NCBI GenBank assembly: GCA_046563655.1
Contig: JAJCTO010000009.1
Coordinates: 868,001-932,000, forward strand
Reading direction: 5' to 3'
Source of the DNA: Yuukianura sp. NJ FZ-2021
Lineage: Eukaryota
DNA: 64,000 nt
Shown here in pieces: positions 4,078 to 28,559 of this stretch. Both the position numbers and the translations under genes were made by a program. The notes under the pieces were generated by a model that was given only the letters and a program-made list of their open reading frames with translations, made no database searches and was not told where the DNA came from. The first letter of the stretch is position 1, and every line of letters starts with the position of its first letter.

Positions 4078-5026
4078 AACAAGGTAGGGTGATGCTCAAG
4101 GGTTGAGCATTGGTCTTCTGGAGGGAGTTGGAAATTGATACGGCTTTTAGACCGGCTGTCCGCAAATCCGTTCAAGAAAAACTTTAAGAAACCGTTTTCA
4201 CGAGATTTTTGCAACGAAACGTCGCTCTAAATTTTCAGTGCAGATGTGGGGCCTTTTGTCCACAATTACATCAAAATGTGAAAAAACCGTTTACATCAAA
4301 ATGTTGTTCAACTTTGAACAGTTTTCACTCTCTTAAAAATTATTTTGCCGCATAATTGCTCCCAAATGTGCATAGATTTTGACATCACAAGGCCCATTAC
4401 CCATCGTCAAAATAACTGCACAATTTTACATTGATGTGCAATAAGTGTGCAACATGCACAAAATTGAACGTTGAAGAAAGTTTATCGAATATCGTTTCTT
4501 AAAATCAAAATCGGTTCAAATAAATGCACCATGTGTTATTAAGTGCATAAGCTGTGGAGTCGAATATCCCTTGTTCCAAATGAAAATTATAAAAATTTCT
4601 TGCAAAGGCAAATTTGAACCCTGCCAAACACTGTTTACGTATTAAGAATTTAAGCCGGAATTTCTAGCCTCTAACTAGGCTTAATTTAACAACGTAATTA
4701 AACTAACTGTCAGAAAATGACCAGATCAAAACTTCGTTGTTAAAAAATAATTTGAGTGTAATGCAGACCTAATTCAAGCATTTTGAGGACGTAAGAAGCA
4801 CCACTGCAGGAGTGACCGGCCATTCTCACGTTGTTAATATACCACTTTGAGTACAATGTAGACCTAATAAAAACACTTGAGCCATACATAACCCCCTGAA
4901 CGAGATTGGGCTCATGTTTCAGTAGAAAGGTTTCTAAAAAACAGGACAGACGGACGGACGGACGGACAAAGTCGTATCAATAGTCTTCTTCAGCATGTCG
5001 TAGACATGCGTCTCCAGAAGACTAAA
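4078..5026 (+). mobile_element. Non-autonomous Helentron/HINE (DINE-1-like) element, apparently complete
   Basis: Starts AACAAG. 5' hairpin ATGCTCAA-GGG-TTGAGCAT (4092-4110). Subterminal inverted repeats GTCTTCTGGAG (4113-4123) and CTCCAGAAGAC (5012-5022). (GACG)n microsatellite at about 4944-4968. 3' hairpin GCATGTC-GTA-GACATGC; ends in an A run. Confidence 0.65.
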
Positions 5027-5029
5027 ACG

Positions 5030-5819
5030 AGGTCATGTTTTGTTTACGTTTTTTGGTAGTAGTCCCTACGTGATTACTACTGGTGTCCTGTATCGCTCAA
5101 GTGTTTTCATTAGGTCTACATTGTACTCAAAGTGTTAAATTAACAACGTAGAAGTTGGCGGCTACTTTACGTACCCGCAGTATCGTGGCTCCGCAAAACT
5201 GTTTTGGTTTCGATTGCACTTAAAGTATTTATAAACAACGGAATTTTGATCTGGTCATTTTCTGACAGTTAGTTTAATTACGTTGTTAAATTAAGCCTGT
5301 TTAGAGGGTAGAAATTCTGACTTAAATTCGTAATATGTAAGCAGAGTTTCGCAGAGTTCAAATTTGCCTTTGCATGAAATTATTATAAACAAGCGATTTT
5401 CGGCAGAATAACTTATGCACTTAATTTAACACACTGTGCATCTTCATGAACCGTTTTCGATTTAAAAGAAGGCATATTCGACCCATCGTGCTCAGCGTTC
5501 AAATTTGTTGATCATCACAAATCTCAATTTCGATATCACTATTTTGATGCCGTTTGGTTTACGCTCTTTTCGCTAATAGTACATTGCCATGGCAACACCG
5601 ACAATACATTATGTGCATTTTGCTCAACAAATTAAGAACATCAATTCAGTGCACTATTTTGGGGTTCAAAACTGGAACATGATTTTGGTGCAATTTAATG
5701 GTAGAATTGCCAACCCAATTTTGGCTATACTTTTGAGGCAAACCGGTTTAAAGTCGTATCAATTGTCAACTCCCTCCAGAAGACCTATGCTCAACCCTTG
5801 AGCATCGCCCTACCTTGTT
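5030..5819 (-). mobile_element. Second, diverged copy of the same HINE-like family in opposite orientation, lacking the microsatellite and 3' end
   Basis: The reverse complement from 5819 reads AACAAGGTAGGGCGATGCTCAAGGGTTGAGCATAGGTCTTCTGGAGGGAG, matching 4078 onward. 5100-5470 is an inverted match to about 4500-4890. Confidence 0.65.
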
Positions 5820-7559
5820 GATATCGAGTTGTGTTGAGTTACTAAGCATACCTATTCGTAAGAAGTATTTGTAATGTCAAGCAACTAATTAGTCTCATAG
5901 GCAAGATAGAGCTACATATTTGCAAAGCATCCAGTAATGGGGCTCTCGATACTGGTGTTTAAATTTAGAGCCCCATGATTTCACCACAGTAAATAGTTAT
6001 CCCCCTAAGTTTTCGGATGAAGGTTTTTCATCTTGGAGCCCTAACATTAGAGGCTTGGCAGAGTTGTAGGTGTTGCTATAACTTCAATGTAACCTTTGCA
6101 TGTATTGTTGGCCACGATTTTAGTAAAGCATTTATTCCAAAGCAAATTGTGCTGATATTTGCCATCGTTACCAACTGGGAACAAATCCATCAAATATCCC
6201 TTTGTTATTTTTGAAAACTGCCTACTTTTGATATTAAGTTGCGTTGAGTTACTTAGCATACCTATTCGTAAGAAGTATTTATAATGTCAAGCAACTAATT
6301 AGTCTCATAGGCAAGATAGAGCTACATATTTGCAAAGCATCCAGTAATGGGGCTCTCGATACTGGTGTTTACATTTAGAGCCCCATGATTTCACTACAGT
6401 AAATAGCTATCCCCCTAAGTTATCTGATGAAGGTTTCTCATCTTGGAGCCCTAACATTAGAGGCTTGGTAGGGTTGTGGGTATTGCTATAACTTCAATGT
6501 AACCTTTGCATGTATTGTTGGATATGATTTTAGTAAAGCATTTATTCCAAAGCAAATTGTGCTGATATTTGCCATCGTTACCAACTGGGAACAAATCCAT
6601 CAAATATCCCTTTGTTATTTTTGAAAACTGCCTACTTTTGATATTAAGTTGCGTTGAGTTACTTAGCATACCTATTCGTAAGAAGTATTTATAATGTCAA
6701 GCAACTAATTAGTCTCATAGGCAAGATAGAGCTACATATTTGCAAAGCATCCAGTAATGGGGCTCTCGATACTGGTGTTTACATTTAGAGCCCCATGATT
6801 TCACTACAATAAATAGCTATCCCCCTAAGTTATCTGATGAAGGTTTCTCATCTTGGAGCCCTAACATTAGAGGCTTGGTAGGGTTGTGGGTATTGCTATA
6901 ACTTCAATGTAACCTTTGCATGTATTGTTGGATATGATTTTAGTAAAGCATTTATTCCAAAGCAAATTGTGCTGATATTTGCCATCGTTACCAACTGGGA
7001 ACAAATCCATCAAATATCCCATTGTCATTTTTGAAAACTGCCTACTTTTGATATTAAGTTGCGTTGAGTTACTTAGCATACCTATTCGTAAGAAGTATTT
7101 ATAATGTCAAGCAACTAATTAGTCTCATAGGCAAGATAGAGCTACATATTTGCAAAGCATCCAGTAATGGGGCTCTCGATACTGGTGTTTACATTTAGAG
7201 CCCCATGATTTCACTACAGTAAATAGCTATCCCCCTAAGTTATCTGATGAAGGTTTCTCATCTTGGAGCCCTAACATTAGAGGCTTGGTAGGGTTGTGGG
7301 TATTGCTATAACTTCAATGTAACCTTTGCATGTATTGTTAGATATGATTTTAGTAAAGCATTTATTCCAAAGCAAATTGTGCTGATATTTGCCATCGTTA
7401 CCAACTGGGAACAAATCCATCAAATATCCCTTTGTCATTTTTGAAAACTGCCTACTTTTGATATTAAGTTGCCTTGAGTTACTTAGCATACCTATTCGTA
7501 AGAAGTATTTATAATGTCAAGCAACTAATTAGTCTCATAGGCAAGATAGAGCTACATAT
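5820..7559. repeat. 410-bp satellite, left part (about 4 monomers)
   Basis: Exact 410-bp periodicity (recurrent ORFs at 6259, 6669, 7079, 7489). Each monomer contains an ATGGGGCTCT...AGAGCCCCAT inverted repeat. Confidence 0.97.
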
Positions 7560-8461
7560 TGCAAGGGTCAATTAGGTCAAAGGGGTCACTTCGAATAAGT
7601 GCCCTACCCGATTGGCCACTTAGCGAAGGAGCGTGGTCACTTGGCGCTAAAAAGGCCAATTGTAGTTGTAGGAATTGAAAGTTTGACCCTTAAGGGGTCC
7701 GTAGATCCGGCAGCAGACCCACTTCGCCACCCTGGGCAGTCAAAGACTACCCGCGTCGGTGGCGCGGAGTGGACGCTGAAGGGACTCCTAATAGATAAGG
7801 GCCCACTTAACTGTACGCCCCACCTCCTTGGGTCAGTCGCAACTGCCCGTGTCGGAGCTGCAAGGCGCACGAAGGGAATTTCGGTGGAGGGAGCCCTAAC
7901 CTTTTGACGGGTGAACGCGTCCAGGAGCCGACAGGCCCTGCACCCTTCCCAGTCCCGGTCCCTTCCCTTTTTATCAATAACTCAATTTTGCATTTTTGTT
8001 ATGTACCTTGGCTGTCGAATGCAGATGACGAAGGGTCCAAGTCTCGCTGAATCTTTCCCTGGCTTAGCTTAGCTCCTTGGCTGGTTGTAGATGAGAGACG
8101 GAAGTGAATCGAACTTTTGAATTTTTACTTTTTATTTGTCTTAAAAGAAATTAGGACTTAAAATTTTAAGGAGAAATTTAACTAAGAAGAAAACTTAATT
8201 TGAAATTCTAACTGAAGGAAATGATCGAATGTCTTCATGCTTGCACCCTATATTTATAGATGTTACTTTTGGTTGCTACCCTGCAATTCTTGACATTGTA
8301 TTTTTTCGCAAAATTTTGGGAAATTCGCAACTTTGTATTTTTATAATCTAAAACCATGTTCAAGCCAACAGCAATCTCAATTGCTGGTGACTTGAATCTG
8401 GTGTCTTCCCATGCACTCTAATGCATCTGCAACTTAGAGCTTAACCTTATTGATCCCATTA

Positions 8462-11061
8462 TATATATATGTTTATAAGAGGGGGCTCACTACCTATTAA
8501 TTAGGATAGTGAGGCCCACGCTGAGCATGCGCTATATGGCATATTTCAGTCTCTCCTAGAAAAACAGCGTTATTCTATCGGGGTATCCCTCTGCTTTCCC
8601 CGATTTAACCTTCCTGACCTCTTTGTAAAGTCAAGTAGGGAGGGCAGAGGGATGTCTGCAAGGTCTGTTCTATCTAGGAATGCTTTCCCAAACAGAACAA
8701 GCCTAGTACGGGCGTGCCCCTCGCATCCCAACAGAAAATGGTCTCTACTTTCCTCCTCCTTCCCACAGACACTGCAGGTTGGGGAGTCCGCAAGTCCTAT
8801 TCTGTATAGGTGCTTTGCTAGCAAGCAATGTCCGGTCACAATCATAGCCAGTAGACGCAAAGATCCTCGGCTGAGGTTTAGACAGAGCTTTGCCGTTTTC
8901 TTGCTGAAACTCGTCAGCAGTGTTTTTGCGTCTTTGCAGTCCTGGCTGTTTCTCCACCTTTCCTCGTGGCACTGCTTCCCCCATCTACTGATAGCAGTGT
9001 GTACAGTGCTCACAGGTACAGGTAGAGTAGGCGCAGGACCAACAAATGGTATTTCCGTTGCTTCCTTAGCTAACCCATCGACAGTCTCGTTCCCTTCGTA
9101 CCCGCTATGTGCTGGTATCCAGTGTACTGTGACTTGCCTGGTGTTGGCCAATGTGTTGAGCGCGTCAAAGCATTCTCTGACCATGCCAGCTTGTGGCCAA
9201 GGGCTAATTAGAGAGTCTAAAACGCTCTTTGAGTCTACGTAAATGTGCGCGGGGAAGACATTCCTTTGGAGTAATAGTCTTCTCGCTGCACATAAAAGAG
9301 CAAAAACCTCCGCCTGGGGCACGCTAGGGTGCTTTCCCAGGGGTAGTTTGTACCCTTTTGCTGGTCCATCCGGTGGTACGATGTAAAACGCTGCACCAGA
9401 TTTCCCGTCTATGCGTGAACCGTCAGTGTAGCAGTTTATCGCATCACTAGGAGGACCACGTTTTGCCCGTTCCTTCCACTGCTTCCTCGAGATCACTTCT
9501 ATCTCAAAGTATCTCTTAGTCGGCAGTATGTTATATCTCTCGCAAGGAAATCCCATTTCTGGGATATCGCATGCGAATGATTCGCAGACTTGTGCGTGAG
9601 TTTGGGTCTTCAGAAAGTTGACCCTAGCGGGAATCCAGTCACTAGAGATTCTAAGCCGGTGCATGGTCCGGAGTGCAACCTCCTTAAGATGGATGTCTAA
9701 CGGTCTTAGGTTCAATAGAGCCTCCATGGCTGCTGTCGGTGTAGATTTCATCACTCCGAAAGTCGCCAACAGGGCAGCTCTTTGAACCTTGACCAGAGGT
9801 TTTATGGTGTTGGGTTTATGAGCAGCCTCTGTCCAGACCAGCCCACCATAGGTTATGGCTGGTCTAACTACGGCCTCGTAAATCCAGTGTGTGTACTTTG
9901 GGGAGAGTCCTTACGTTTTTCCAATAGCGCGTTTGCATTGTGCTAACGCGATGGAGCCCGTGAGTGCTCTCCGTTTAATGTGTGCATTACAGTTCAGTTT
10001 GTCGTCTAAGGTCACCCCTAGATAACGTACAGCTTTGGAATATTTCACCTCCACACTCCCAATTTTGAGAGGTATTAGTTTTGTGTTTCGTTTGTTAGTG
10101 AACAAAATGGCTTCTGCCTTTTCCCCACATAGACCTAAGTCAATGTCTGGGCGGCGACACCATTCCATCACTAAATTAAGTGCCTGCTGCACTATATTTA
10201 CGATGGTGGGGTAGTCGACTCCAGAGTGGAGTAGTCCCACATCGTCAGCAAAGGCCTGGCTTAATACTTGTGGAAAGCGACTGTCTAATGACGTCAGCAC
10301 TTCACTTACAAGTAGGATCCAGAGTAAGGGGGAGAGCACACCACCTTGTGGGCATCCCCGTTCGACTTCACTTTCCACGGATTCGTCATGCAGTCCACCG
10401 ACGACCGTGCGGGACATGAGCATATGTTGTACCACTCGGATACAACCATCCTCTAGTCCCTCCCTGTGCATTGCAGCAATCATTGAGCGAAACGTCGCAT
10501 GGCTGAATGCTCCTTCAATGTCCAGGAGCACGGCCAGCGCGTACTTTTGATTGCGTAGTGCATGCTCTGCTAGACTGACGAATCTATGCAGGGCAAGTTC
10601 CGTAGAGCACCCCTTAGGTAGGCACATTGTCCAGCTCCTTTCAGTCTTTCCACTAGGGCGGGAGACCGTAGGTGCCAGTCAATTAGCCTCTCGAGGACCT
10701 TGAGCAGGAAGGAAGTCAGTGATATGGGCCTCCAGGAGTTGGCCCTGCAGTAACTGTCCTTCCCTGGCTTAGGGATGAAGACCGCTTGTGTCTTCCTCCA
10801 CTTTGTAGGAATGTATCCAAAACGTATACATCCTCGCATTATGGTGCCCAGTATGGGGGTAAGAACCTCTTGTCCTGCAATAAGCATTCCCGGAAATATT
10901 TCGTCCGGTCCAGCTGCCTTGTTTGGACTAAAAGTTCTGAGCACCCTACCCACTGTGGCGTCATTTGCAACCTCCGTAGCGATTGAATCACTAGCGGAGT
11001 GATCATGTACAATCTCCTGTCTTTGAGGATCAGGAGGATAATGTTTGTGAAGTTAGGTTAG
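8462..11061 (-). mobile_element. 5'-truncated non-LTR retrotransposon (LINE with RT and RNase H; LOA/Lian-like)
   Basis: TSD TTATTGATCCCATT(A) at 8447-8461 and 11062-11076; (TA)n 3' tail at 8461-8470; absent from the 5' LTR. Confidence 0.93.
8570..11040 (-). pseudogene. LINE ORF2 fragment: reverse transcriptase, RNase H and C-terminal CCHC-like motif
   Basis: Motifs KAAGPD, WRPISLTS, LDIEGAF, GCPQGGVLSPLLW, AFADD, YLGVTLD, YTDGS, AEVFA, DSKS, WIPAHSGYEGNETVD and CSVCGKEEESRDHFLLGC. Frameshift near 10620 and a stop at 9911-9913 (KT*GLSPK, where W is expected). Confidence 0.92.
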
Positions 11062-11247
11062 TTATTGATCCCATTAATGCCAACGCCTAAGTCTTTTCTA
11101 TCAAATTTACGACACTTTAAGTTTTTCTACAATTTGAATAAATGTTTGCAACATTTTGAAAACAGCAAAATGAATGAACTAATACAAACCGGTTAAAACC
11201 GGATCTCATTTTAAAACTACCTTCATGCACTTTTCCCAGGTGTAACA

Positions 11248-11260
11248 TCTTTCCCGGTTT
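11248..11260 (-). other. Polypurine tract (imperfect)
   Basis: Minus strand reads AAACCGGGAAAGA immediately before the TGTTACA start of the 3' LTR. Confidence 0.65.
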
Positions 11261-11264
11261 AATT

Positions 11265-13115
11265 TCAGACGTCCTCGTCGGAGCTGTAATCGGTTTCAGA
11301 GTCCGAAGCGCGATATATGGTGTCGTCATCGTCGGAGTCTATGATAACTACCGAGTTGGCTGCCGGAGGTTGTGCTGGCACTGGAGCTGGTCGTGAAGAA
11401 GGTCCAGCAACTGGCCCTGGAGTTGGCCTGGAAGATGGCCCTGCAACTGGCCCTGGAGTTGGAGTATGGCCAACTTGGTTTTGGGCACACATTGCCGTGA
11501 CTGCCATAACCGGCGTCTTGTTGGGACCAGGAGGCGTCCAGAGGGGAGGCAGCTTCACTTGAATGGCAGTAGGAACGGCTAAGGCAGAGGATCGTAGAGA
11601 GGATCGTTCAGAGGATCGGGGAGAGGATTTGTACAGGTCGAGCTCAATTTCTATGGTGCGGGCTTTGGCGGACATGGCAAGATATTTGATTTTGTATTTG
11701 TCCAATTCAGCTCTAAGTTCGGTTTCAATAGATGAGGGGGGAACATACGGCTCATCGATACATCCTTGAATCTCGCTGCTTGCAATTGTCGGAGTAGGTG
11801 CTGGGTCAACGGAAATGTGACTTGCAGTGAGCGGGGTAGTAGACTCTTCCTCCAATGGTCGCACAATGGTTGCTGACGGTTGTGGTTTGGTTAACGTGAG
11901 CACAGTTGAAGGCACTGCGGGAGGCCGAAAGGAATGATCCAGTGATGGTATGGGAATGCTGCTGCGTGAGGTACCGGCAATTGCTGGTGGAAGAGGAGCC
12001 GATAATCGCGGTGTTTTCGCAGGAGGAGGGCTATCTTCGGGTGAAGCGATTGGTTGTGGAGAGTGTCCAGTGGATGAAGCTACTGCACCGATGTCGTCCA
12101 TAAAGAGGTTGTTGATTTCGGCTATGACTTCCGTTTTAGTCAATGGGTGATCCGTAGGTAGCTTGAATGACTGGAGAAATCGATTCACACGTGCCTGAGC
12201 GTGACTTTGTTGGACGGTCGCCCATTCCCAATATCGAGTGCGAAAACTGGAGAGAGGTTGGTCAAGAATAACGCCGAGTCGAATAATAACATTGCTGACG
12301 AGTTTGTCCAAACGGCGGGAAGGAACGTCTGCTGGAACTATTAGCGGTCGAGAGCCTTTTACTAATCCAGGTGATTTAAGCTGCTTACTTGCAGCTTGTC
12401 CCGAGGCTTTTACCATGATTCTGATGACATCTGCAAAATCAGCTCGTTTTGTCAATCCAATCATCATACGTTTCCAGAGGCGAAGCAGAGTGTCTGTGTG
12501 TGCTTTCATGGCTGTATATAGCTTGAGGAGAGTGGGATCATGAAATTTCGGTTTTTGATGCGATTCTCCAAGGAATTGTTCGCATAAAAGGTTGAAACTG
12601 ATATCATGTGTCCAAGCTGGCGTGAGCTTGAGTTGAGTGATGTCAATGGCAGCTACTGTGTAAAGGCCGAAATCTCGAATGAGCCAAAGAATCTCACTGT
12701 AGGAGGCAAAAATTTTTGGCGTAGTGGCGTCCAGGAAAATTGGTTCTAAGAGCGGCTTGATTTGAAGATAAAGCTCCTTGGTTTCAATGACACATGACAT
12801 ACCTAATGAGCAGAGGCCAATAGCTGTAGTCTCCCCTAAGTAAGTCTCTTCGTTTTGGAAGCATGTGACTGCAATAGGTTCTTGCCTAGGTATGTGTGAA
12901 ATAAACTTTTGGACCTGCTCATGTCTATGGAAGTAGGAGTGGGGATGATGAATAGTTTTGGGAAGAGCAGAGGGATGTATGGAGGAAATTAAGGAGGCAC
13001 CCTGGACTGCCCGAATCTGAGACCGAATTTGGTGATTCAAAACAATGGTTCTGCGACGGTTAATTCGCAATCTCTCAGCCCATCGATCCTTAGCAGAAGT
13101 GTAAATTGAAGACAT
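11265..13115 (-). CDS. Accessory protein: degenerate Rrp6/EXOSC10-like DEDDy exonuclease domain plus a Pro/Ser-rich tail with a short coiled coil (616 aa)
   Basis: EPIAVTCF...YLGETTAIGLCS...VIETKEL...IFLDATTPKIF...ILWLIRDFGLYTVAAID parallels the Rrp6 pattern (IAVDLE...LGLTCLMQIS...IIDTLEL...DPAIVKVF...IEWLQKDFGLYVVNMFD). The acidic catalytic residues are replaced. Intact ORF, preceded by TTTCAG|ATG. Confidence 0.72.
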   Translation of the reverse strand: MSSIYTSAKDRWAERLRINRRRTIVLNHQIRSQIRAVQGASLISSIHPSALPKTIHHPHSYFHRHEQVQKFISHIPRQEPIAVTCFQNEETYLGETTAIGLCSLGMSCVIETKELYLQIKPLLEPIFLDATTPKIFASYSEILWLIRDFGLYTVAAIDITQLKLTPAWTHDISFNLLCEQFLGESHQKPKFHDPTLLKLYTAMKAHTDTLLRLWKRMMIGLTKRADFADVIRIMVKASGQAASKQLKSPGLVKGSRPLIVPADVPSRRLDKLVSNVIIRLGVILDQPLSSFRTRYWEWATVQQSHAQARVNRFLQSFKLPTDHPLTKTEVIAEINNLFMDDIGAVASSTGHSPQPIASPEDSPPPAKTPRLSAPLPPAIAGTSRSSIPIPSLDHSFRPPAVPSTVLTLTKPQPSATIVRPLEEESTTPLTASHISVDPAPTPTIASSEIQGCIDEPYVPPSSIETELRAELDKYKIKYLAMSAKARTIEIELDLYKSSPRSSERSSLRSSALAVPTAIQVKLPPLWTPPGPNKTPVMAVTAMCAQNQVGHTPTPGPVAGPSSRPTPGPVAGPSSRPAPVPAQPPAANSVVIIDSDDDDTIYRASDSETDYSSDEDV

Positions 13116-13281
13116 CTGAAATCAATTTGATTATTTCGGATTTATATTTTACAAATTTTTATTTAGAACTACGTTCCCTTATAATGTTTGTTACTATAAT
13201 TGAACTACAGTTTTCTCTACTGTTTTCTACGTGTGTAACAGGGACTACAGTGAATTTTTCTTTTAACAAGTTAGGATCCCC

Positions 13282-14173: not shown

Positions 14174-14872
14174 TTATAGAAATTCCCAAAGAGCTATATC
14201 AAGCCACTCGTCCGTTACGCCTAATCCGCGACGCGTGTAGTATCTTCGAGCGCGTTGCCGAGCTCTGCGTTGAGCGGTAGTAAAAGCCGATAAGTAGATA
14301 GGAAGTTCTCGCGCGTAAATTATTTCTAAATGAGTCGCTAAGTCTTCTCTATCTTTTGTATACTTTCGAATTTGTTTTGCTAATGTTTGAAAACGGTATG
14401 GTTTTGGGCGAGGCCCAAGAGGAACAAGTGTACAATAGTCGTGAAAGCTATAATATTCAATCCCGAATTTGCGCAAGATCCGTTCCAACTCTGCGGGAGC
14501 GAAGGTTACAATGGCCGGCCAGTGAAGCTGGAGTGGTTGATTGTAATCCAAAATAAATTGACTTAAGAGAATTGGAAAAACGTTAAGTGGTATTTTTGCC
14601 AAGAATTGTTCTATCTTTGTATGACTGTTGGGGTCAACTGTAAGTATTCCTGGGTAATACGAACGCTGGAGTATTACAATATTACTGAATATTTGATTTT
14701 GTTTGGCTCGAGCCCGTCTTTTCGTTTCCTCTATGTATTTTAACAATTTGGGGAACACGTCGACTACGTTTGTTAAATCGTTGACGCAACAGAACTGGAA
14801 GACTTTGTCCAAAACTAGCTCTGGCAACTCATAAAAGTGAAGGGTTCCAGGCTTCAGCGGGGCCGAGGTCAT
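14174..14872 (-). CDS. Accessory protein with an N-terminal F-box-like motif (232 aa)
   Basis: FYELPELVLDKVFQFCCVNDLTNVVDV fits the LPxEILxxIFxYLxxxDL F-box pattern; intact ORF. Confidence 0.65.
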   Translation of the reverse strand: MTSAPLKPGTLHFYELPELVLDKVFQFCCVNDLTNVVDVFPKLLKYIEETKRRARAKQNQIFSNIVILQRSYYPGILTVDPNSHTKIEQFLAKIPLNVFPILLSQFILDYNQPLQLHWPAIVTFAPAELERILRKFGIEYYSFHDYCTLVPLGPRPKPYRFQTLAKQIRKYTKDREDLATHLEIIYARELPIYLSAFTTAQRRARQRARRYYTRRGLGVTDEWLDIALWEFL

Positions 14873-16008
14873 ACGGACTTGGCGGTGTGACCTGGCAGGT
14901 CAAGAATTCGTCGTGAGCGCTGCTTTACAGCTAGCCAACTCAACAGTTTCCTTTTTGGGGAATTTGCAAGTGCTAACTCAGGAATTTTCTTTGTCTAAAG
15001 ATTTGAATAAAGCGAGATTTCCTTGTCAACCTAAAATTAAAAAGAGCTTCGTCGAACATGATGAATAGTTTTTCAATTTGATATTGAATATTAATTAATT
15101 ATGTGGCTGGTATGCCAAAACACGTCATGACGACCAGGTTAGAGGTCAAGGTCCTTGCTCTCATTCGAATTTGGATTTGGAAAATCTAAATAATCATGTG
15201 GCAATGCTGTTTCATTGTAGTGATTTCTAATCCGTGCTTACTAAGAATTCGCATTCTACGACAACCCGTGAAAGGTTCTTTGAATCTACGTAATAAATAC
15301 TCAATCATATTTGTTTACTAAAAATGGAAACATTCTTCTGCTCCGAATTTCAACCATGTTATGCAGGATTAATTGACGTGTACACTTTGGCCAAGGAGTA
15401 ATGGCTTAAGAAACAGGCAACATAGAACGATTCACCAACTGTAACCGTTCTAACTGCTTTGAAGAAATATTCCATGGAGTATTATAATTTTATACGTTAA
15501 GATCTAGTTTATTTTGACATTGTAGTCAAGGCAAGAAACGGTGTTAAACAACATTGTGTCTCCCGCATTTGGTGAAATTCAGTCAGTGCACTTTTGAACC
15601 AATGCTGAACTTTGCATTAGAAGACTGGGTCATTTCACAAAACAAATGTTTACGTTGGAATCGGCGACCGTGACAGAAGAACCTACAATTCTTCATGACA
15701 ATATGTCGATTGAATCTCAGTTTTAGAGGCTGAGGCGCTGGATGCTAACACTCCTCGAAGGCACAAATCCGAATTCATACCATTACTCTAATCAGAACGG
15801 AAGTCATTAACCTGACAGAATTTTCCAATACTGTAATCCGGACCGGAATTAACTGTATGGATTTTACCAAATTGACAAAATTGACAGATATTTTTAGCCT
15901 GTACCATAGGCATTAATAAGTGCAAAGGTCCCGTGGCACTATTAAATTGCAACACTACGTTTTTACTACGTTTTCTTTCACAAGGTAAAACAATGTAAAT
16001 CAACTTCG

Positions 16009-16191
16009 TTAATCATTTTCTTTATCTTCTTCAAGTTCTCTCTCCATAACCTCAATTCTAACAGTCAACTCCTGAATTTTTGCTTGACAGAAACAAAGTC
16101 TAGCGGTCTTATTTCGCCTGCGCTTGGCCAGTCGTATGGCGGCTAACATGAGAGCTCGTCGTCGCTTCCTAAGCTCGCGCTCTAAGTCCAT
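16009..16191 (-). CDS. Small basic/coiled-coil (bZIP-like) protein, 60 aa
   Basis: Basic stretch RKRRR...KRRRNK followed by a heptad-like IQELTVRIEVMERELEE; TTCTGTTTTAG|ATG acceptor directly at the start. Confidence 0.4.
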   Translation of the reverse strand: MDLERELRKRRRALMLAAIRLAKRRRNKTARLCFCQAKIQELTVRIEVMERELEEDKEND

Positions 16192-16330
16192 CTAAAACAG
16201 AATAGTTACACTAACAATTTCATTGTTGATTTAAAATTACAGGGCACAATTCAGTGTACACCTGATCAAAATTTATAATTCTACAATTCTCGACTACTAC
16301 TACAGTTCATATGAACATCTTTAGTCACTT

Positions 16331-18574
16331 TTAGACATAAGTTTCAACCGTAGTTTCTGACGTTGGATCAAGTTTGGGCTGGAAGCTTTTAAGGACGCGA
16401 GTTTCAGCATGACTCATTGTGAGTCGTAAAGGCATTCCTTCTGGGACTAAAAATTTCTTTGATTCTCCAATTCCCACTTCCAAATTAACTTCTGCAGATG
16501 CTTTGGGAATTTTAACTTTGGAGGCTCCGTCCTTAATCTCGGTGGCAGGCTTTACATCGGCTCCTTCTCTCTTTTTCTCTGGGGGAACGTTGAACTCGTT
16601 CTTTCTTTGCTCTGAGCAGATTCGATAAAGGTAAATATACCATACGAGAAGAACAAGTAGCAGTAGGAAAAACAAAATTCCAATTATGACAATGTTTGTG
16701 GTGTGATGGGCTTCCGAGCTTTGTGCTGCGACTCCTCTAATTCGGTCCATCAATCCGAGTCCTATGACTGGGCCGATTCCGTTGGTACAGCATTGTTTGT
16801 ACATCATGAATCCCAGAATGACGCTCAAAGCTATGTTCCACACTATCAGCATGGTATCTGTAGTGGGAGCAATGACGTGAATTAAATTTGGTACTACCAA
16901 TTGTTTAATTCTGCTGACTTCTGTCAAATTTAGGCGGGGTGAACCTAGGTCCCAAGTTTCATTGAAAACTGCATGGAGGTGGGGAAAAGTAACTGGTTCA
17001 CCTCGATTGTTGGCTTTTAGCATAACATCAATTTTTGACATGACGGTAGGAATTATAATATGGACTGTGGGAAAGTTTACGAGGTCGTCCGGGCAAGGAT
17101 ATGGAGGTCGAATTGGGGATCTTCCTGGAATTTTTACTGAGCAATCACAGCTTAATTTCACCTGAAGGCTTCCCACGCCTTCCGTCGGCGGACCCACGGA
17201 AAAGCTTTTGCTTTCACCACAATCTATTTTGGTGCCTTCAACTTTTCCAGTTAGAATAAAAGTATCATAGCTTAATTGGGTGACCGTTAATTCGTTGTTA
17301 CCCAACACACACTCAAAAATGCATACATCATTTAGTTCTCGAACGCTTGAACCTTTTAGCAGATGTTTGACGCAAAGGAAACCGACCATTGGATTGCTGT
17401 TCGTTTGAGGTACAAGACAGAGTCCGGAATGAGGCTGACATTGGTGCAGCTGAGTTCCCTGGATGGTGATGATGTTGTTAGCGGCAACAGCTACGTAAGT
17501 GGGTGCGTGCTGGATCATACAAATGCTTCCTTTGAAGCCAAATGGAATGTTGACCATCTCGAATAGCTTCCAATTTTCTTCAATTCGTCGAATAGGAATT
17601 TTAACCCGAAAAATTACTCTTCCTTCCGGAGTGAAGGTGCAGTCCGCTATTCGTAATTTATAGTATTTGGAAACGTCTTCTGCTGAAATGGCCAAGGTGT
17701 AACCATCATTTCTAATTTTTCGGTTGATGTTTCGTAAGTCTTTGGTGAGTCGTTGAGGATTAACGGCGAGCAAGGGAATTGTGTGGCTGCGACAATGGGA
17801 TTGAAGATCAGTGAACTGCATAATTTCGGCAATTGAATTCAGATGAAAATATGTTTGCATGAAACCTCTCTGGAACGTGCTGACTTCTCGTGACAATGCG
17901 TTCACCTGTCTAGCGATTTCGGTTTCTTCAGTGATGGTTTCATTCATTTCTTGGCTTAGTGATTCTAAGCTGCTATGGATTCGGCTAACAATTCGAGAAA
18001 CGTTGCCACGAAACAGTTCGTAACTTTCGTTGATGGTCATGACGTTTTGGTTGTTGGCCACCACTGAACCTTTCAAGGTTTCCAAGAACTTTTTAACTTC
18101 AACTTCATTTGAAAAGAGGCCCTTCATGTCTCTTTTGCTGACAAAGCCGCAACAGAATGAATAAAAATCGGAAACAAGATTGAGAGGATTGAGACTTTCT
18201 AAATCAAGAGAACGCTGTCCTCTGGCCAGGAACTCTCGTGCTGTTCCGGAGGATGGATCATGAAGGATGTCTTTCAAAATGTTTCTTAAAGTCTGGCTAA
18301 CATGATTAACCATATCGCGAATTGTGATCTGAAAACTGCATCCATCCGCGCTTGTTTCACAAATTTTGGAACGAAATAAATTTTGTGGGATTTCCGCAAA
18401 GGTTACATTTAAATCGTAGATGAGAGGAACAGTTGCCGTGTAAAGCTCCGCGTCCGTGATTTCTCGAACGAAGGCTCCAGAGGTGACTCGAACTTGAGTC
18501 GGAGTAATTGAGTATTTCTGGGAAGTGGTAATACTCGCAAAAGCCGCTACAATCAGTGCGACCTCGAGCTTCAT
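16331..18574 (-). CDS. env: Envelope glycoprotein (fusion protein, probably of the baculovirus-F/errantivirus type), 747 aa
   Basis: N-terminal signal peptide, RGQR/S furin-like site followed by LNLVSDFYSFCCG, heptad-rich region, Cys-rich ectodomain with N-glycosylation sequons, two C-terminal hydrophobic segments; lies directly downstream of the integrase. Confidence 0.85.
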   Translation of the reverse strand: MKLEVALIVAAFASITTSQKYSITPTQVRVTSGAFVREITDAELYTATVPLIYDLNVTFAEIPQNLFRSKICETSADGCSFQITIRDMVNHVSQTLRNILKDILHDPSSGTAREFLARGQRSLDLESLNPLNLVSDFYSFCCGFVSKRDMKGLFSNEVEVKKFLETLKGSVVANNQNVMTINESYELFRGNVSRIVSRIHSSLESLSQEMNETITEETEIARQVNALSREVSTFQRGFMQTYFHLNSIAEIMQFTDLQSHCRSHTIPLLAVNPQRLTKDLRNINRKIRNDGYTLAISAEDVSKYYKLRIADCTFTPEGRVIFRVKIPIRRIEENWKLFEMVNIPFGFKGSICMIQHAPTYVAVAANNIITIQGTQLHQCQPHSGLCLVPQTNSNPMVGFLCVKHLLKGSSVRELNDVCIFECVLGNNELTVTQLSYDTFILTGKVEGTKIDCGESKSFSVGPPTEGVGSLQVKLSCDCSVKIPGRSPIRPPYPCPDDLVNFPTVHIIIPTVMSKIDVMLKANNRGEPVTFPHLHAVFNETWDLGSPRLNLTEVSRIKQLVVPNLIHVIAPTTDTMLIVWNIALSVILGFMMYKQCCTNGIGPVIGLGLMDRIRGVAAQSSEAHHTTNIVIIGILFFLLLLVLLVWYIYLYRICSEQRKNEFNVPPEKKREGADVKPATEIKDGASKVKIPKASAEVNLEVGIGESKKFLVPEGMPLRLTMSHAETRVLKSFQPKLDPTSETTVETYV

Positions 18575-18630: not shown

Positions 18631-21600
18631 CTATGAGTCTATTCCAAACCTAACAGGTTTCTTGACTTCTCTTCCAGCCCTAGTTCTAACAACATTTTCA
18701 AGTTTATCTTTTTCAATCTCCTCGTCTTCAGTTGACGATGCATTTTCACTACTTTCACTTTCAGATTCAGAGCCTAAGCTCACTTTATCTACAGTAGGTT
18801 CTTCAAACTCAAATTCTAACAGATCATCCGGAATCAACTTATCCGAAGGATCTGCTTCTGGGGTTTCCGTTATCTTTACCACTTCCATAGGAAGCTTTCC
18901 CGGTTTAGAATCTGCCCGTCCCGGGTCAGACAAACACAGCTTGTGACAAAGGTGGGTCATACCTTCACTGTCAATAAATTTCTTTAAATTAGAAATATGA
19001 ACGCGAATCGGATCTGAGTCATCTTGTTGCTTATGAGGCTTGCATTTGTAAGACAGAGCAGAGTTCTTTTGAACAATAACATAAGGACCGCGGTAACGGA
19101 AACACAATTTCCGTGACCTGCCAGGGTCCACCTTGGTCACTTTGACCAAAACCAAATCACCAATTTCAAATTCATCAAGGAGACGCTTGGCATCGCAGGA
19201 CTTGGCCTGACGAGCCTGCGCTCTTTCAATGCCAAGTTTGGCTAAATCTCTAGCTTCCTGCATTTTGCGTATGCGAGTGGGAATGTCGTCGTTGGATTGT
19301 ACAGTATCCCAGACAAGATCCAACGGATGGTTCGGGTGGCGACCGAACATTATGTAAAAACCGGAAAAACCAGTGCTTTCTTTGTGTTCCGCTGTATTTA
19401 GGCTGAAAACGGCAGACCCTAAATACTTGTCCCAATCTCGCTGAGACACGGAAGTGTAATTCGTTAAAACTTCTTCAATACTTCGGTTCTGGCGCTCACA
19501 GAGCCCGTTAGTTTGACTATGGTACGGACTGGAAAAGACGTTAATAATCCCAAGGGATTTGTGAAACTGTTTGAAAAAGTCAGACGTAAAAATTGAAGCA
19601 TTGTCGCTGAGAAGAGTTTTTGGTAGTGCATGAGTCTGAAAAATGTCAGTCAAGAAATCTAACATGACTTTAGTAGTTTGCTTTTTGATAGCCCGGGCGA
19701 AAACAAATTTAGAAAGAAATTCTACAGCAACGACAATGAATTTGTTACCTCGCTTTGACGATGGCAGCGGTCCAATGACATCTAAACTCATTCGATCGAA
19801 CATTTGACCTACGGAAATAGGGCACAATTTCCCCAAAGGTTTCGTATTTCTACTGCGCCGAAGCTGACACGTTTTGCAACAACGGACATAATTCACGACG
19901 ATCTTAGGCATTTTGAAAAAGAAGACACTGCGACGAACGCGCTCCAGAGTCCGCTCTACTCCCATGTGACCAGAATGAATGTCGTCATGGAAACGTGGCA
20001 GTATCTCAGGAATTGAAAGATGAGGAATTACGGGTAAAAGTTTCCCGGTTTTGATACATTTCCACTTGAGCAATTCATCATCAAGAATAAACTTTTTAGA
20101 GAATTTATGGTGAGGATGTGATTTAAGTTTTTGGATAATAAATTTCAATTTGGAGTCAGCCAATTGATTGCGCTGAAGATCGTCGGTAGAATCGGTAGGA
20201 GTGACAACCGTGGTAAGAAACCAAGGAATCGGAAAGTCATCTTTGAATTCTTGTTCATCGTCGATCGGAAAGCGGGATAGACAATCTGCCTGATAGTGAG
20301 TTTTTCCATTCACATGACGAATCTCGTAGTCTACGTCCTGCAAACGTAAGGCCCATCGAGCTAACCGACTATTTCTGAAATTCCTGCATGTTTTTAAATA
20401 ACAAAGACTATGATGATCGACCGCGATGATCAATGGCCCAAAGCCAATGTATTCACGATATTTTTCTAATCCCCAGACAACACTGAGAGCTTCTTTGTCC
20501 GTTGTGCTATAACGCTCTTCAGCACCCTTCAAAGTTCGACTAGCATACGCAACGACTTCTAATTTCCCGTCTAAATTTCTTTGATTTAAAATTGCCGAGA
20601 TACCTTTGTTAGAAGCATCCGTATGAAGCTCTAATTCAAAGTTTTCATTAAAGTAAGCTAAAATAGGAGCTGTCATAAGTTTACTTTTAAGTGTTTCAAA
20701 CGCTTCCTGACAATCTGAACTCCACTGAAATGGCTTATCTTTCTTTGTGAGGTCGGTGAGTGATTTAGCTACTTGACTATAATTTAAAATGAATCGACGG
20801 TAAAATCCGCATAAACCGAGAAATGTCCTGACTTCACCAACATTCCTAGGCGGAGGCATGAGAGATATCGCTTTTACCTTGGAATCAGAAACTGAAATGC
20901 CTTTGTCAGATATGACGTGACCTAACAACTCCAATTTACTTTTTCCAAAATGGCACTTTGCGGGATTGAAAGTGAGGTTAAATCTTTGAAATTGTTGAAA
21001 AACGTCTTCCAGATGTTCTAAATGAGTTTTGAAGTGCTTGGAGTGAATGCAAAGATCATCTAAATAAGCCTGAGCAAATTTATAAAGTCGCCGACCTAAC
21101 ACCTTCTTAATGACCGAATTGCAAAACGCGGGAGCATTCTTCATTCCGAAACTGACGTATTGATATTCATACGTTCCATTGTGTACTATAAAAGCTGTCT
21201 TTTCCACGTCATCCGGATGGACTTTAAGTTGGAAGTAGGTACAGAGTAGCAGACGCTAAATCCAAGGAAGAGAAAACTTTACATCCGGTAAAAGAAGAAA
21301 GAATCTCGTTAATGACGGGCATTGGATAAGACTGGCTTTTAGTTACATTGTTCAAGCGACGATAGTCAATCACCATTCGAACTTTGTCACTACCTGGACG
21401 TCTAACTAAGCTGACACCTGCACTCCAAGGGCTAGTACTTTCTCGAATTATCCCTGCGTTAAGTAATTTATCCACCTCCTCCTCAATAATGCGTTTTTCA
21501 TGAGGCGCCTTTTTGTAAGGAGCACTGGAAATGGGTGCTGCATCCCCCGTATCAATTTTGAAATATTCATCCTGCACCTTCCCTAACTGATCAAGGTCCC

Positions 21601-22600
21601 ATGCCATGGTATCCCCGTATTTAAGAATCAAATCTTTTAGTTGTTGCTGTTCTGCCATGGACAAATCAGGATTAATGATAATCTGATCAATATTTTCCTT
21701 CGTGGATTTAAACCTAGCTTGGCGAATATTGTCCTCTGCTTCAACCTCGCGGATTTGAACACGCGTCAAATTTCCTACGTGAACACCAGCATAAACAGTA
21801 GTTGGAACCGGCCTTGGGTTGTCGATTGGTAGTTCAAAACAGCCTTCTGGAATATGAGCTAAATATGGAATGCAGAGCCCAAGTCGATCTAAAAGATGCT
21901 GATTTGGTTCGAATGACAAGGTTCCTGTAATAGGAGTGACTGGCTTCACTAGAACTTTGGTTGTAGAAAATGGAGGCAAAATTTCCTCAGAAATGGTAAT
22001 GACCTTGGGGTATGATGGGTTCGATTTATTAGAACCTTGCCGCTAAAGGTGATGCAGATGAAGGGGTAGTCCTAAGCTGTCGTTGGAAAATAATTTGAAA
22101 GGTCGTGGAACTCTCATGCCGACGTATGAATAACTTCCGTATCCCTTTGGAGCGGAATTGAAACTAAGGGTGAGAAGATTTTTGGAATTGAAATCGTTTC
22201 CCAAAATTATATCAAAGAGACATTTCTCGATAACTAAAAAGGAATGACATAAAACTTGATCAGAAGATTTTGAGAAAACTAATGACTTTTTGACAGAACC
22301 TAAGATTGGGATTTTAGCCTGATTGGCGGATAATAGTTTAAGACCAGGAAGTTGAGGAACCAACTCGTGAGCTTGAACGTGCTGAGCCATAATTATACTA
22401 ACTGGACTTCCTGTATCAATTAATCCAGTAATACGACGTCGTTTATCGCCATCAACGAAATAGATTGTGGTAACCACGTTACCAAAATTTAATTCAGTAA
22501 AAGAATCTGAAGCTTCTACTGCATGACAACTATGTACTACGGAGGAATTAAGATTCAAATCGACGTCAGACCCTCCTACTGGCGTCGCTCCTCTTTTACC
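18631..22600 (-). pseudogene. pol: pol polyprotein (protease, RT, RNase H, integrase), interrupted in this copy
   Basis: LIDTGS (PR); SPWSA, RMVIDYRRLN, FGMKNAPA, YLDD (RT); HTDAS, YSTTDKEAL (RH); HDDIHSGHMG...CKTC, SLDVIGP, SDNAS, NGLCER, RGPY (IN). In-frame TAG at 22043-22045 and an apparent 10-bp insertion frameshift at about 21240-21250. Overlaps the end of gag in the -1 frame. Confidence 0.93.
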
Positions 22601-24165
22601 GCAACTTTCTTTTCCAACTGAGCTTCCGGTTTGGGTTTGTGCGGGCAGTCCTGAGTAGGATGAGCGCTTGACTTGCAGATTTGACAATTCATCTGCCGAG
22701 GACCTGGAGATTTCCGTTGAAGCTGCGGACATTGAGGCTTCATGTGATTCTCGGAGCCACACTGGTAACACGCACGGCGAGTTGCGATTTGTTCGCGATG
22801 AGGGCAGGTTCTACCGATGTGCATGGTAGACTCGCAGATACTACATCTGAGCCGTGCCGGAGTACGCAAAATCTTCTCTTCCGGGCATTGCCTGGTGGGG
22901 TGAGAGCTTGACCCACAGCTGTAACAATGAGCAACTTGTTGCGGAATTGGCTCAAATCCAACCGCATGAGCAGTGTGACGAGGTTGATAAGAGCGAGTGT
23001 AGACTGCCGTTGTACGGCTTCCTTGGCCACGGAGAATTCCAGATCCTTGACCGCTTCCCCGAGAATGCTGAGTTCCCGGTACTCGTCCTCGAGAAGCAGG
23101 AATAGTAGAACTCCGCTGATAACCCATTTGAGAAGTTTGAACCGTCATTGACTGCTTGTCATTACCTGATTCGTCGCTAATTGCCAGTGGAAAAATAGTC
23201 TGAATAGCCTCTTCTAATTCTCTATTTTGCATTAACGTTGTTTTACGTTTGAAGCTATAATCGAAGTTTTCTTTCCGAATTAATTCACTCAGAACCTCCT
23301 TAGTAGTCGATGGACTTTTCTGGTGGATGACCCAAGCTAACTCCGGGGTCAATCCTTTCAACAAATACAAAATCCGCTCATCTTCTTTAATCGAAGACCC
23401 TTGACTAGCCTCAAGCTGGTCACAGAGCTTCATCACGTTATAGTAATAGTCTTTAACAGTTTCATTTTTGTCCTTCTTGCGAGATGCTAATTTGTCCTCT
23501 AACGCGTCTTTAGTCAAACGAGATTTAAACTCGTCCCGAAAATTTGTTTCCAAGTCCGTCCAAGTCAAAACTTTAACGTCTCCTTGAGCGTTTTTGTTCA
23601 AAGGATTACGTTTCCATTCATTTTTAAATGTTGATAGCCACATCTTCGCAGGCCCAATTAAGTAAAGGCCAAAATGCTCAATTTTAGTTGCGTCATCCCA
23701 ATGTTGGGAGACAGCAATTGCTTTAAATTTGTCCAAAAATTCATTTGCCTTGGCACCCCGTTGACCTTTAAAGGTCAGTTCACCCGGAGGTGTCCAAATC
23801 GAAATCGCGCTAACCACAGGGGTTGAAGTAGCAGCCATGGCTGATTCACTTGAAATAACTTCAATTCGAGGAATTGGAACGTTAATTGCCGCTAATTCCT
23901 CTTCAGAGGAAGCGATGCTAAGCCAAGAAGCAACAGATCCGACCGCTAATATATCAGGAGTTCCTACAGACTCCGATCTTCCTACAAGTATTTTCCCTAC
24001 AATGCCTTCTGCTGTCTGTTCAGTGCTAACTTCTATCTCAACAGTACTGGGTGATCTTGATTTGCTTCTTTCTATTCTGATCTCTCTTTCTAAAACTTCT
24101 AAATCTTCTGGACCAAATTCTGGCGGTTTGTTTTGTAGACGACGACTGGATTTTTCTTCGCTCAT
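22576..24165 (-). CDS. gag: Gag with four CCHC zinc knuckles (529 aa)
   Basis: Retrotransposon capsid-like region (FLDKF...W...LIGPAKMW...TWTDLETNFRDEF...ETVKDY). Knuckles CYSCGSSSHPTRQC, CSICESTMHIGRTC, CYQCGSENHMKPQC and CQICKSSAHPTQDC. Confidence 0.92.
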   Translation of the reverse strand: MSEEKSSRRLQNKPPEFGPEDLEVLEREIRIERSKSRSPSTVEIEVSTEQTAEGIVGKILVGRSESVGTPDILAVGSVASWLSIASSEEELAAINVPIPRIEVISSESAMAATSTPVVSAISIWTPPGELTFKGQRGAKANEFLDKFKAIAVSQHWDDATKIEHFGLYLIGPAKMWLSTFKNEWKRNPLNKNAQGDVKVLTWTDLETNFRDEFKSRLTKDALEDKLASRKKDKNETVKDYYYNVMKLCDQLEASQGSSIKEDERILYLLKGLTPELAWVIHQKSPSTTKEVLSELIRKENFDYSFKRKTTLMQNRELEEAIQTIFPLAISDESGNDKQSMTVQTSQMGYQRSSTIPASRGRVPGTQHSRGSGQGSGILRGQGSRTTAVYTRSYQPRHTAHAVGFEPIPQQVAHCYSCGSSSHPTRQCPEEKILRTPARLRCSICESTMHIGRTCPHREQIATRRACYQCGSENHMKPQCPQLQRKSPGPRQMNCQICKSSAHPTQDCPHKPKPEAQLEKKVAVKEERRQ

Positions 24166-24347
24166 GAGCTATTACAGCCTCAAGGCAATCTATTAAAAGT
24201 TAAAAAGGGTTGAAAACTTTTTGGAATTGGAACAATCGAAGTTCATTCAATCCCATCAATTCATGAAATTCATTTCATTTACGATGATGTGGTAAAGCCA
24301 ATCAATTGTGCTCAACTATGACACTTTTAATGGAGAATTAACGTATC

Positions 24348-28539: not shown

Positions 28540-28557
28540 CCCCTGCATCGGGCACCA
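28540..28557 (-). other. tRNA primer binding site
   Basis: TGGTGCCCGATGCAGGGG, 2 nt downstream of the CA end of the 5' LTR; resembles Lys-type PBS sequences, but the tRNA is not assigned with confidence. Confidence 0.85.
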
Positions 28558-28559
28558 TT

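Follow-up and report, generated by a model that had tools for sequence, protein, structure and literature searches.

Genes with the fold of DEDDy-type exonucleases have been met in retroelements before, namely as the RNase D-like open reading frame (ORF) 3 of the bdelloid rotifer long terminal repeat (LTR) retrotransposons Juno and Vesta and of the Athena/Terminon elements (Rodriguez et al. 2017, PMC5408684), an account that is repeated in the corresponding section of a review (PMC6431247). According to the sections of the former paper that deal with this ORF, its invariant residues are intact (DEDD being changed to DEED), no departure from neutrality is seen within a genome, the retroelement genes are closer to one another than to cellular Rrp6, RNase D, mut-7, or WRN, the dUTPase of the rotifer LTR elements lies inside pol, between the protease (PR) and the reverse transcriptase (RT), and Maelstrom and Exd1 are named as inactive precedents. 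Repeated conversion of nuclease folds into RNA binders, partly via added positive surfaces, is described for Egalitarian, Exuperantia, and Exd1 in the pertinent parts of a preprint (bioRxiv 10.1101/2025.08.03.668247), which also state that the RNA binding of Egalitarian was unaffected when its five catalytic residues were all mutated. Here, a 64,000-nucleotide stretch of DNA from Yuukianura sp. NJ FZ-2021 (GenBank assembly GCA_046563655.1, contig JAJCTO010000009.1, positions 868,001 to 932,000 of the forward strand; "the window" from here on, within which all the coordinates below are counted) is analyzed with respect to the last gene of an env-bearing LTR retroelement lying in it. We are highly confident that this gene, whose 616-amino acid (aa) product is called P0001, is derived from Rrp6/EXOSC10, catalytically dead, and selected. 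As retroelement DEDDy genes with intact residues are already known from the rotifers, what is new here is the dead site and the identifiable Rrp6/EXOSC10 source.

As far as the published description of Juno, Vesta, and Athena allows the comparison, the rotifer elements and the present one have in common a DEDDy-fold auxiliary non-env ORF downstream of pol and a dUTPase within the element, whereas in the present element the site is dead, the gene affiliates by sequence with Rrp6, the dUTPase has a 3′ gene of its own, and a true F-type env occurs as well. With Egalitarian (described as binding a retrotransposon RNA signal, that of the I factor), Exuperantia, Exd1, and Maelstrom, as these are portrayed in the sources consulted, P0001 shares the reuse of a DEDDy/DnaQ fold without catalysis and, putatively, RNA binding; those, however, are host genes, and no sequence-level match between them and P0001 is seen at E ≤ 1. 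Rrp6/EXOSC10 itself is homologous to P0001 in the linker and the EXO domain, where the non-catalytic core motifs are kept, but in P0001 the catalytic five are replaced, the charge of the domain is reversed, the gene is encoded by a retroelement instead of a host, and neither PMC2NT nor, at the level of sequence, HRDC nor a C-terminal region resembling that of Rrp6 is found. Literature searches covering open-access PMC and bioRxiv full texts yielded no account of an Rrp6-derived retroelement gene.

The affinity to Rrp6 emerges from several sequence comparisons. A phmmer search of 177,635 distinct PDB sequences with the whole of P0001 gave 14 matches at E ≤ 10 (the best with an E of 0.0013 over query residues 58-227), 13 of them being Rrp6/EXOSC10 from human, yeast, and Trypanosoma brucei, and the same program, given residues 1-340 and 1.84 billion proteins, returned eight at E ≤ 1e-3. 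These eight are the family members P0002 and P0004, four bona fide Rrp6 proteins (exonuclease plus HRDC, with PMC2NT above the cut-off in one of the four), the divergent Rrp6-like P0008 (548 aa, all five DEDDy residues kept, HRDC weak, PMC2NT not detected), and a plant chimera that contains pieces of an Rrp6-type exonuclease, every non-family match thus being of the Rrp6 type. When a profile of the three family members (P0001, P0002, and P0004) was searched against the PDB, the top 13 of the 16 matches were Rrp6 (E 2.3e-10 to 1.5e-7), the next family was T. brucei RNase D (E 5e-3), and no Exd1, WRN, EXD2, Nibbler, or Egalitarian chain appeared at E ≤ 1, the Exd1 entries 5fiq and 5fis being present in the library. 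The alignment of the family with five Rrp6-type sequences by hhalign (probability 99%, E 8.2e-18) spans query residues 23-252 and includes the linker before the EXO domain. By sequence, the EXO domain is therefore nearer to Rrp6 than to the other DEDDy families.

This affinity is a distant one. The only Pfam match of P0001 at E ≤ 10 is to the exonuclease family DNA_pol_A_exo1 (PF01612, cut-off 23.6 bits), with 15.7 bits, P0004 also remains below the cut-off (19.3), and P0002 alone exceeds it (32.9). Identity between the family and the four bona fide Rrp6 proteins is just 17-21%, so that any capture would be an old one; host-gene pickup by mobile elements is known, and capture from a host would account for the gene's origin. 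A word-index search of 5.8 billion proteins gave no match with the whole of P0001 and P0004 alone with the family profile, and no relative of P0001 was found among the IMG/VR viral contigs. Core residues kept in common with Rrp6 are K134, L145, D148 in RDFG, and D158 in the (F/I)D motif, as seen in an alignment of eight sequences (the three family members, P0008, and the four bona fide Rrp6 proteins) that also served for the catalytic site. The parts of the gene and its edges are as follows (pI, isoelectric point; pLDDT, predicted local distance difference test).

11265..13115, minus strand: Rrp6-like pseudo-nuclease gene (P0001), 616 codons plus stop, ATG start, last gene of the element
13116..13130, minus strand: pyrimidine-rich TTGATTTCAG abutting the P0001 ATG, splice-acceptor-like
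12942..13115, minus strand: residues 1-58, N-terminal segment, very basic (pI 12, net charge +8)
12366..12941, minus strand: residues 59-250, DEDDy-fold exonuclease-like domain (fold matches, HMMER, hhalign, pLDDT 70-87)
12858..12866, minus strand: former Exo I, T84-C85-F86 replacing D-x-E (alignment)
12693..12695, minus strand: position of the Exo II aspartate, occupied by E141 here and by Q in both relatives (alignment)
12498..12512, minus strand: position of the Exo III Y-x-x-x-D, with A202...H206 here and Q...H in P0002 (alignment)
12096..12365, minus strand: residues 251-340, basic helical region (pI 10.1) common to P0002, at the position of the Rrp6 HRDC domain
11346..12095, minus strand: residues 341-590, Pro/Ser/Ala/Thr-rich half (composition)
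11268..11345, minus strand: residues 591-616, acidic tail (net charge -10), VVII, then DSDDDD and Ser/Asp/Glu clusters
11248..11264, minus strand: 17-nt spacer between the stop codon and the 3′ LTR, AATTAAACCGGGAAAGA, ending in the purine run GGGAAAGA, polypurine-tract-like

A preliminary description of the window, made from its letters, had seen in this ORF a catalytically dead Rrp6/EXOSC10 mimic carried by a retroelement, and most of what it reported stands: the coordinates, the length of 616 aa, and the end 17 nt from the 3′ LTR agree with the stop codon (TGA at 11265-11267) and the edge of the LTR copy (11247); the strings it quoted are present in P0001 (PIAVTCFQNEETYLGE at residues 80-95, ILWLIRDFGLYTVAAID at 142-158, and YTAMKAHTDTLL at 200-211); LTRs, a target duplication, and gag, pol, and env do surround the gene; and the likeness specifically to Rrp6/EXOSC10 is borne out by phmmer, the family profile, and hhalign. 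Its placing of the Rrp6 pattern at residues 75-220 is upheld by phmmer, the range alone having been drawn somewhat narrowly (58-227 by HMMER, 23-252 by hhalign). The ATG is preceded by a stop at a distance of two codons, and the LTR begins with TG directly after the purine run of the spacer. At the other edge, the acceptor-like junction of the window (TTTCAG followed by ATG) has its counterpart in L001, the contig that bears P0002, where CTCCCTTCCAG stands in the matching position directly before the ATG of the Rrp6-like gene (TTCCAG followed by ATG). Spliced mRNAs are the usual route for env-type and accessory genes of retrovirus-like elements, and P0001 is, judging from these letters, probably made from a subgenomic mRNA that is spliced directly before the ATG.

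The catalytic site is gone throughout the family. The DEDDy positions of P0001 read T84, F86, E141, A202, and H206, with none of the five kept apart from the change of D to E at Exo II, those of P0002 read S, Y, Q, Q, and H (again none of five), and the three covered by P0004, which ends before Exo III, read S, F, and Q (none of three), while D, E, D, Y, and D are all kept in P0008 and the four bona fide Rrp6 proteins. The alignment thus agrees with the preliminary description in that the Exo I DxE is replaced (T84, F86) and the Exo III YxxxD is lost (A202, H206), and adds to these losses the change at Exo II (E141). The substitutions are recurrent, with S/T-C-F/Y at Exo I in all three members and H replacing the aspartate of Exo III in both of those that cover it. 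Two-metal DEDD chemistry needs four acidic ligands, and as these are lost here, P0001 should not be a DEDD nuclease; no DEDD exonuclease activity is predicted for it.

A structural model was obtained with AlphaFold2 from an alignment that included Rrp6 rows (pLDDT 70-87 over residues 59-245), for which Foldseek placed Rrp6 at ranks 1-16 and VIA gave Rrp6 a Z of about 20-22 over residues 4-340 and RNase D a Z of about 19-20 over the EXO domain only. Since this model could merely have copied Rrp6, a second one was built from the three family members alone. Its mean pLDDT is 54, and yet Rrp6 still takes Foldseek ranks 1-10 (E 3.4e-9 to 1.5e-7), 95 matches are found at E ≤ 0.001, and DEDDy domains occur throughout among the matches listed. 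Egalitarian and Exd1 chains are also fold matches to the P0001 models, Exd1 being no better than the other DEDDy families. A DEDDy (RNase H-like alpha/beta exonuclease) fold is robustly predicted for P0001.

What surrounds the EXO domain is less like Rrp6. The 58 residues that precede it align with the Rrp6 linker, not with PMC2NT, for which Pfam gives no match in P0001 at E ≤ 10, and the confidence of the model is low in this segment, which holds an arginine-rich stretch (ERLRINRRR, with ERLRLN as the counterpart in P0002). HRDC is not detected in P0001 by Pfam, the hhalign alignment ends at residue 252, and helices 267-338 overlay the HRDC region just in the model built with Rrp6 rows, the family-only model showing no such overlay. 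Residues 341-616 show no likeness to Rrp6 (hhalign probability 0.05% against the five Rrp6-type sequences); of these, residues 341-590, which are without a counterpart in the 337-aa P0002, are probably disordered, and hold one helix-like heptad stretch (ELRAELDKYKIKYLAMSAKARTIEIELDLYK) and a tandem of two TPGPVAGPSSRP copies. P0001 ends in VVIIDSDDDD...SSDEDV (VVIIDSDDDD...SDSETDYSSDEDV), a VVII plus acidic Ser/Asp tail that we take to resemble a SUMO-interaction motif (SIM).

P0002 (337 aa; E 3.4e-24 and 29% identity over residues 9-304 by phmmer) and P0004 (a 168-aa fragment) sit on contigs L001 and L002 of one metagenome, the former having a complete 337-codon frame with ATG and stop and the latter a 171-codon piece only; L001 ends about 100 nt past the stop of P0002. 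In all three loci (the window, L001, and L002), a dUTPase gene is followed by the Rrp6-like gene. The dUTPase proteins of the window and of L001 (911-1981) are 35% identical over 292 residues, including the non-dUTPase C-terminal part (an extension of about 150 aa common to both, for which there is no Pfam family), and the ORFs upstream of them show a weak likeness (E 6e-5). DNA contigs were also compared, X1, X2, and X4 representing one sample and X3 a metagenome with three small pieces, with contig depth not being taken as copy number. Contigs of the window's organism hold many diverged copies of the frame, the pieces in the identity classes 99+, 95-99, 90-95, and <90 numbering 15, 3, 8, and 16 in X1 and 25, 13, 9, and 15 in X2. 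Among 40 differences listed of 255, 30 fall within the P0001 frame, 16 being synonymous and 14 nonsynonymous; for random single changes, the expected synonymous share is 24.7% (binomial p 7e-4), and if 33% is assumed, p is 0.017. The Rrp6-like gene and the dUTPase gene are probably kept by selection as a 3′ module of an element family. The DEDDy set is gone in P0001 and, at the covered positions, in both relatives, and neither of the outcomes that the preliminary description had named as refuting it is seen: the DEDDy/Rrp6 fold match is obtained also from a model without any Rrp6 row, and signs of purifying selection are present in the open frame of P0002 at 29% identity and in the synonymous excess.

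As to what the gene does, its charge offers a lead. The EXO domains of the family have pI values of 8.35 and 8.02 (net charge +2 and +1), as opposed to 4.98-6.78 (net charge -1 to -11) in five Rrp6-type domains, and in both full-length members the flanks are strongly basic, the pI being 12.0 and 10.4 for the N-terminal 58-60 residues and 10.1 and 10.0 for the helical region after the domain. The explanation that we consider the best overall, giving it about an even chance of being correct, is that of a real accessory gene with a dead Rrp6 core, coding for a non-catalytic nucleic-acid-binding protein. The accessory gene would descend from the catalytic core of Rrp6/EXOSC10, i.e., the linker and the EXO domain; the dead nuclease fold, neutral to basic, together with the two strongly basic flanks, would hold RNA, most plausibly the element's own unspliced or 3′-end RNA; this would protect or export the RNA of the element or route it past nuclear 3′-5′ surveillance; and host partners would be recruited by the C-terminal half, which is probably disordered and ends in the acidic SIM-like tail. 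The best-supported reading is that of an accessory protein that binds RNA without catalysis, comparable to Egalitarian, Exd1, or Exuperantia, which would fit better than an exosome decoy, although an RNA-binding, non-decoy mechanism as such, suggested by analogy and charge, is put at slightly short of an even chance. A more specific version, in which the basic-flanked dead Rrp6 core acts as a Rev-like shield or escort on unspliced or 3′-end RNA, or sits in the place of Rrp6, and so blocks exosome decay, is tentative and, on balance, unlikely.

Several findings weigh against such an explanation. Residues of the pocket that are invariant in Rrp6 are also replaced in the family (HH after Exo I, Q-I-S, and D-W-R-x-R-P-L), and, because of this, Rrp6-style binding of an RNA 3′ end is not assured. 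In terms of geometry, the family-only model ties the DEDDy families in VIA (Z 16-19 over residues 58-255: RNase D 18.9, Pol I exo 18.7, Rrp6 17.8, Nibbler 17.6, and Exd1 17.5), which is why the Rrp6-specific origin rests on sequence and on the mixed score of Foldseek. The known family has three members, two of them from one metagenome and one of the three a truncated fragment, the synonymous excess comes from 30 listed differences on about five contig pieces, and the runs X1, X2, and X4, being one sample and possibly the source of the window's assembly, are not independent of the window. An additional GG behind 12468 occurs in one contig of X1 and in one of X2, several contigs skip 94-278 nt inside the P0001 frame, and some of the copies are therefore broken. 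Lastly, the pol region of the window copy is interrupted by an in-frame stop (22043-22045) and a frame change near 21224-21255.

The preliminary description itself had proposed that the protein may act as a decoy or an RNA shield, and the former possibility, namely that a dead copy of Rrp6 would compete with the host's own Rrp6 for a place on the core of the exosome or on the cofactors Rrp47/C1D, Mtr4, and Mpp6 and thereby disable nuclear surveillance of the element's RNA, is the rival explanation that survives best. Its nearest relatives being specifically Rrp6 and the conservation of the catalytic loss in the family would both be in keeping with it. Docking of Rrp6, however, relies on PMC2NT, which binds Rrp47/C1D, and on a region near the C-terminus that associates with the exosome, and P0001 has a 58-residue N-terminus in which no PMC2NT is found at the Pfam threshold given above, a C-terminal half that resembles no Rrp6 region, and an HRDC that is seen just in the model built with Rrp6 rows. 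Exosome-docking regions show weak sequence conservation, for which reason the absence of one is not proven; still, because neither docking module was found, competition for exosome proteins is ranked below an RNA-binding role and appears improbable to us, even though retrotransposon-derived RNA is degraded by the nuclear exosome according to the relevant part of a published account (PMC13465009).

A captured nuclease gene might also simply be decaying as a passenger, of no use to the element. The loss of the catalytic residues, the frameshifts and deletions in some of the copies, the 171-codon piece in L002, and the interrupted pol of the window copy are what such a relic would display; on the other hand, two frames of 616 and 337 codons have stayed open although their products are only 29% identical, the catalytic columns show recurrent substitutions (three of three at Exo I, H in two of two at Exo III), the gene order is conserved at three of three loci, and synonymous changes are in excess (16 versus 14), all of which renders a relic quite improbable. 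The same degree of doubt attaches to an antagonist of SUMO or chromatin, in which the disordered C-terminal half would bind SUMO and target SUMO-dependent silencing bodies, with the dead fold serving as a scaffold: the VVII core and the acidic Ser/Asp tail with its net charge of -10, a putative SIM, invite it, but the tail is not a family feature, as the 337-aa P0002 ends before any such region, albeit on a contig that itself stops about 100 nt further on.

An origin outside Rrp6, in some different DEDDy lineage that is inactive or mobile (e.g., Exd1 or the DEDDy pool of rotifer retroelements), is very improbable. The geometric tie between all the DEDDy families would permit it, as would the statement, in the portion of PMC5408684 concerned, that the rotifer retroelement genes are nearer to one another than to cellular ones; yet no Exd1 chain is matched by the family profile at E ≤ 1, and all the non-family matches among the 1.84 billion proteins are Rrp6-type. 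A language-model feature search did rank an arthropod "Exd1 homolog" cluster first (0.93). The Exd1 identity that it offered was not borne out by sequence, the profile result being the one just mentioned. That P0001 is still an enzyme, i.e., a nuclease or another hydrolase with a rebuilt active site, is hardly credible, the acidic E141 of P0001, the conservation of H206 in P0002, and the invariance of E95 in the family notwithstanding, since two-metal DEDD chemistry requires four acidic ligands, whereas in the relatives Exo II is occupied by Q and none of the five columns holds an acidic residue.

The element that carries the gene, together with the insertion that interrupts it, comprises the following features in addition to those listed above.

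7555-29632, minus strand: LTR element of about 22 kb, env-bearing, Ty3/gypsy-type (LTRs, target duplication, gag, PR-RT-RNase H (RH)-integrase (IN), F-type env)
28556-29632, minus strand: 5′ LTR, 1077 bp, then the primer-binding-site-like TGGTGCCCGATGCAGGGG
22576..24168, minus strand: gag (Retrotrans_gag, zinc knuckle; Pfam)
18631..22810, minus strand: pol region (protease 22043-22810; RT, RNase H, and integrase 18631-21255)
16331..18574, minus strand: env-like gene (Baculovirus F protein family; Pfam)
14174..14872, minus strand: 232-aa ORF without a Pfam family; weak likeness of its last 74 aa to the ORF preceding the dUTPase in L001
13282..14160, minus strand: dUTPase-like gene, extended at its C-terminus by about 150 conserved aa, adjoining the Rrp6-like gene upstream
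7555..11247, minus strand: 3′ LTR in two pieces (7555-8461 and 11062-11247), interrupted by a non-LTR retrotransposon
8462-11061, minus strand: non-LTR retrotransposon, 2.6 kb, 5′-truncated (RVT_1, RNase_H, zf-RVT), inserted in the 3′ LTR

By its feature set (LTRs, duplication, gag, pol, and F-type env), the carrier is an Errantivirus-like Ty3/gypsy LTR element. Identity between its LTRs is 99.8% across 907 bp, and a 4-bp ATAT target duplication lies on both sides of the element. A feature search with pol returned mixed phyla, Arthropoda being the most frequent in the first row, which amounts to no assignment of a host taxon. From 5′ to 3′, the gene order is a 231-codon ORF (for which there is no Pfam family), a matrixin plus a hemopexin repeat, gag, the protease, RT/RNase H/integrase, the baculovirus-F-type env, the 232-codon ORF, the dUTPase-like ORF, and the Rrp6-like ORF. 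The frame change in pol falls inside or just before the RT domain, and the interrupted pol is either a case of recoding or a defect of a young copy (given the likeness of the LTRs).

At 24348-25735 (minus strand), upstream of gag and inside the LTRs, the matrixin (Peptidase_M10, E 4.6e-46) has a signal-peptide-like start (MRLFVLLLFIVSGYCS) and is followed by the hemopexin repeat in a different frame with an overlap of about 170 nt; a secreted metalloproteinase within a retroelement is unusual. The co-occurrence of an F protein, a metalloproteinase, and a dUTPase is reminiscent of a betabaculovirus gene set, as far as the descriptions consulted go. The dUTPase of L001 keeps AAGVDL, PRSG, and GVIDPDYTGE, which we take to be the usual dUTPase motif residues, where the window ORF has LPGFVF, PSS, and DLIERDQRGP, having lost them, and the dUTPase of the window lineage may, on the strength of these motifs, also be a pseudo-enzyme. 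Two stretches of about 1.4 kb in the element (14900-16330 and 25736-27170, minus strand) are without a coding-strand ORF of at least 80 codons. The non-LTR retrotransposon is bounded by a 15-bp target duplication (TTATTGATCCCATTA) and has a TA-rich 3′ end.

Outside the LTR element, which is inserted within it, a 410-bp satellite fills 5809-7564 and 29633-64000, the latter run exceeding 34 kb and its array being broken at intervals by stretches of about 230 bp (e.g., 30741-30970 and 32212-32441). Just ahead of the satellite, there is an inverted repeat of about 300 bp (82% identity, arms 4587-4888 and 5089-5388, 200 bp apart). An ORF at 888-1829 (minus strand) has an Endonuclease_7 match (E 5.9e-9) and then a weak, sub-cut-off match to a type-B (organellar/viral) DNA polymerase (E 4.2e-4), and may, going by these matches, be a Polinton/Maverick-like or virus-derived fragment. 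Rfam gave no match at gathering scores in positions 1-30000 of the window.

The significance of the Rrp6-like gene lies, first of all, in its source being identifiable as Rrp6/EXOSC10, the very nuclease of nuclear RNA surveillance that removes transposon transcripts, and in the element's copy being a conserved pseudo-enzyme, which makes it a concrete candidate for how a retroelement copes with nuclear RNA decay. Were the shield reading, which we consider unlikely, to prove true, no transposable element would have been shown before to encode an anti-exosome countermeasure at the protein level. P0001 would likewise be a mobile-element addition to the nuclease folds that have been reused as RNA binders, as in Egalitarian, Exuperantia, Exd1, and Maelstrom.

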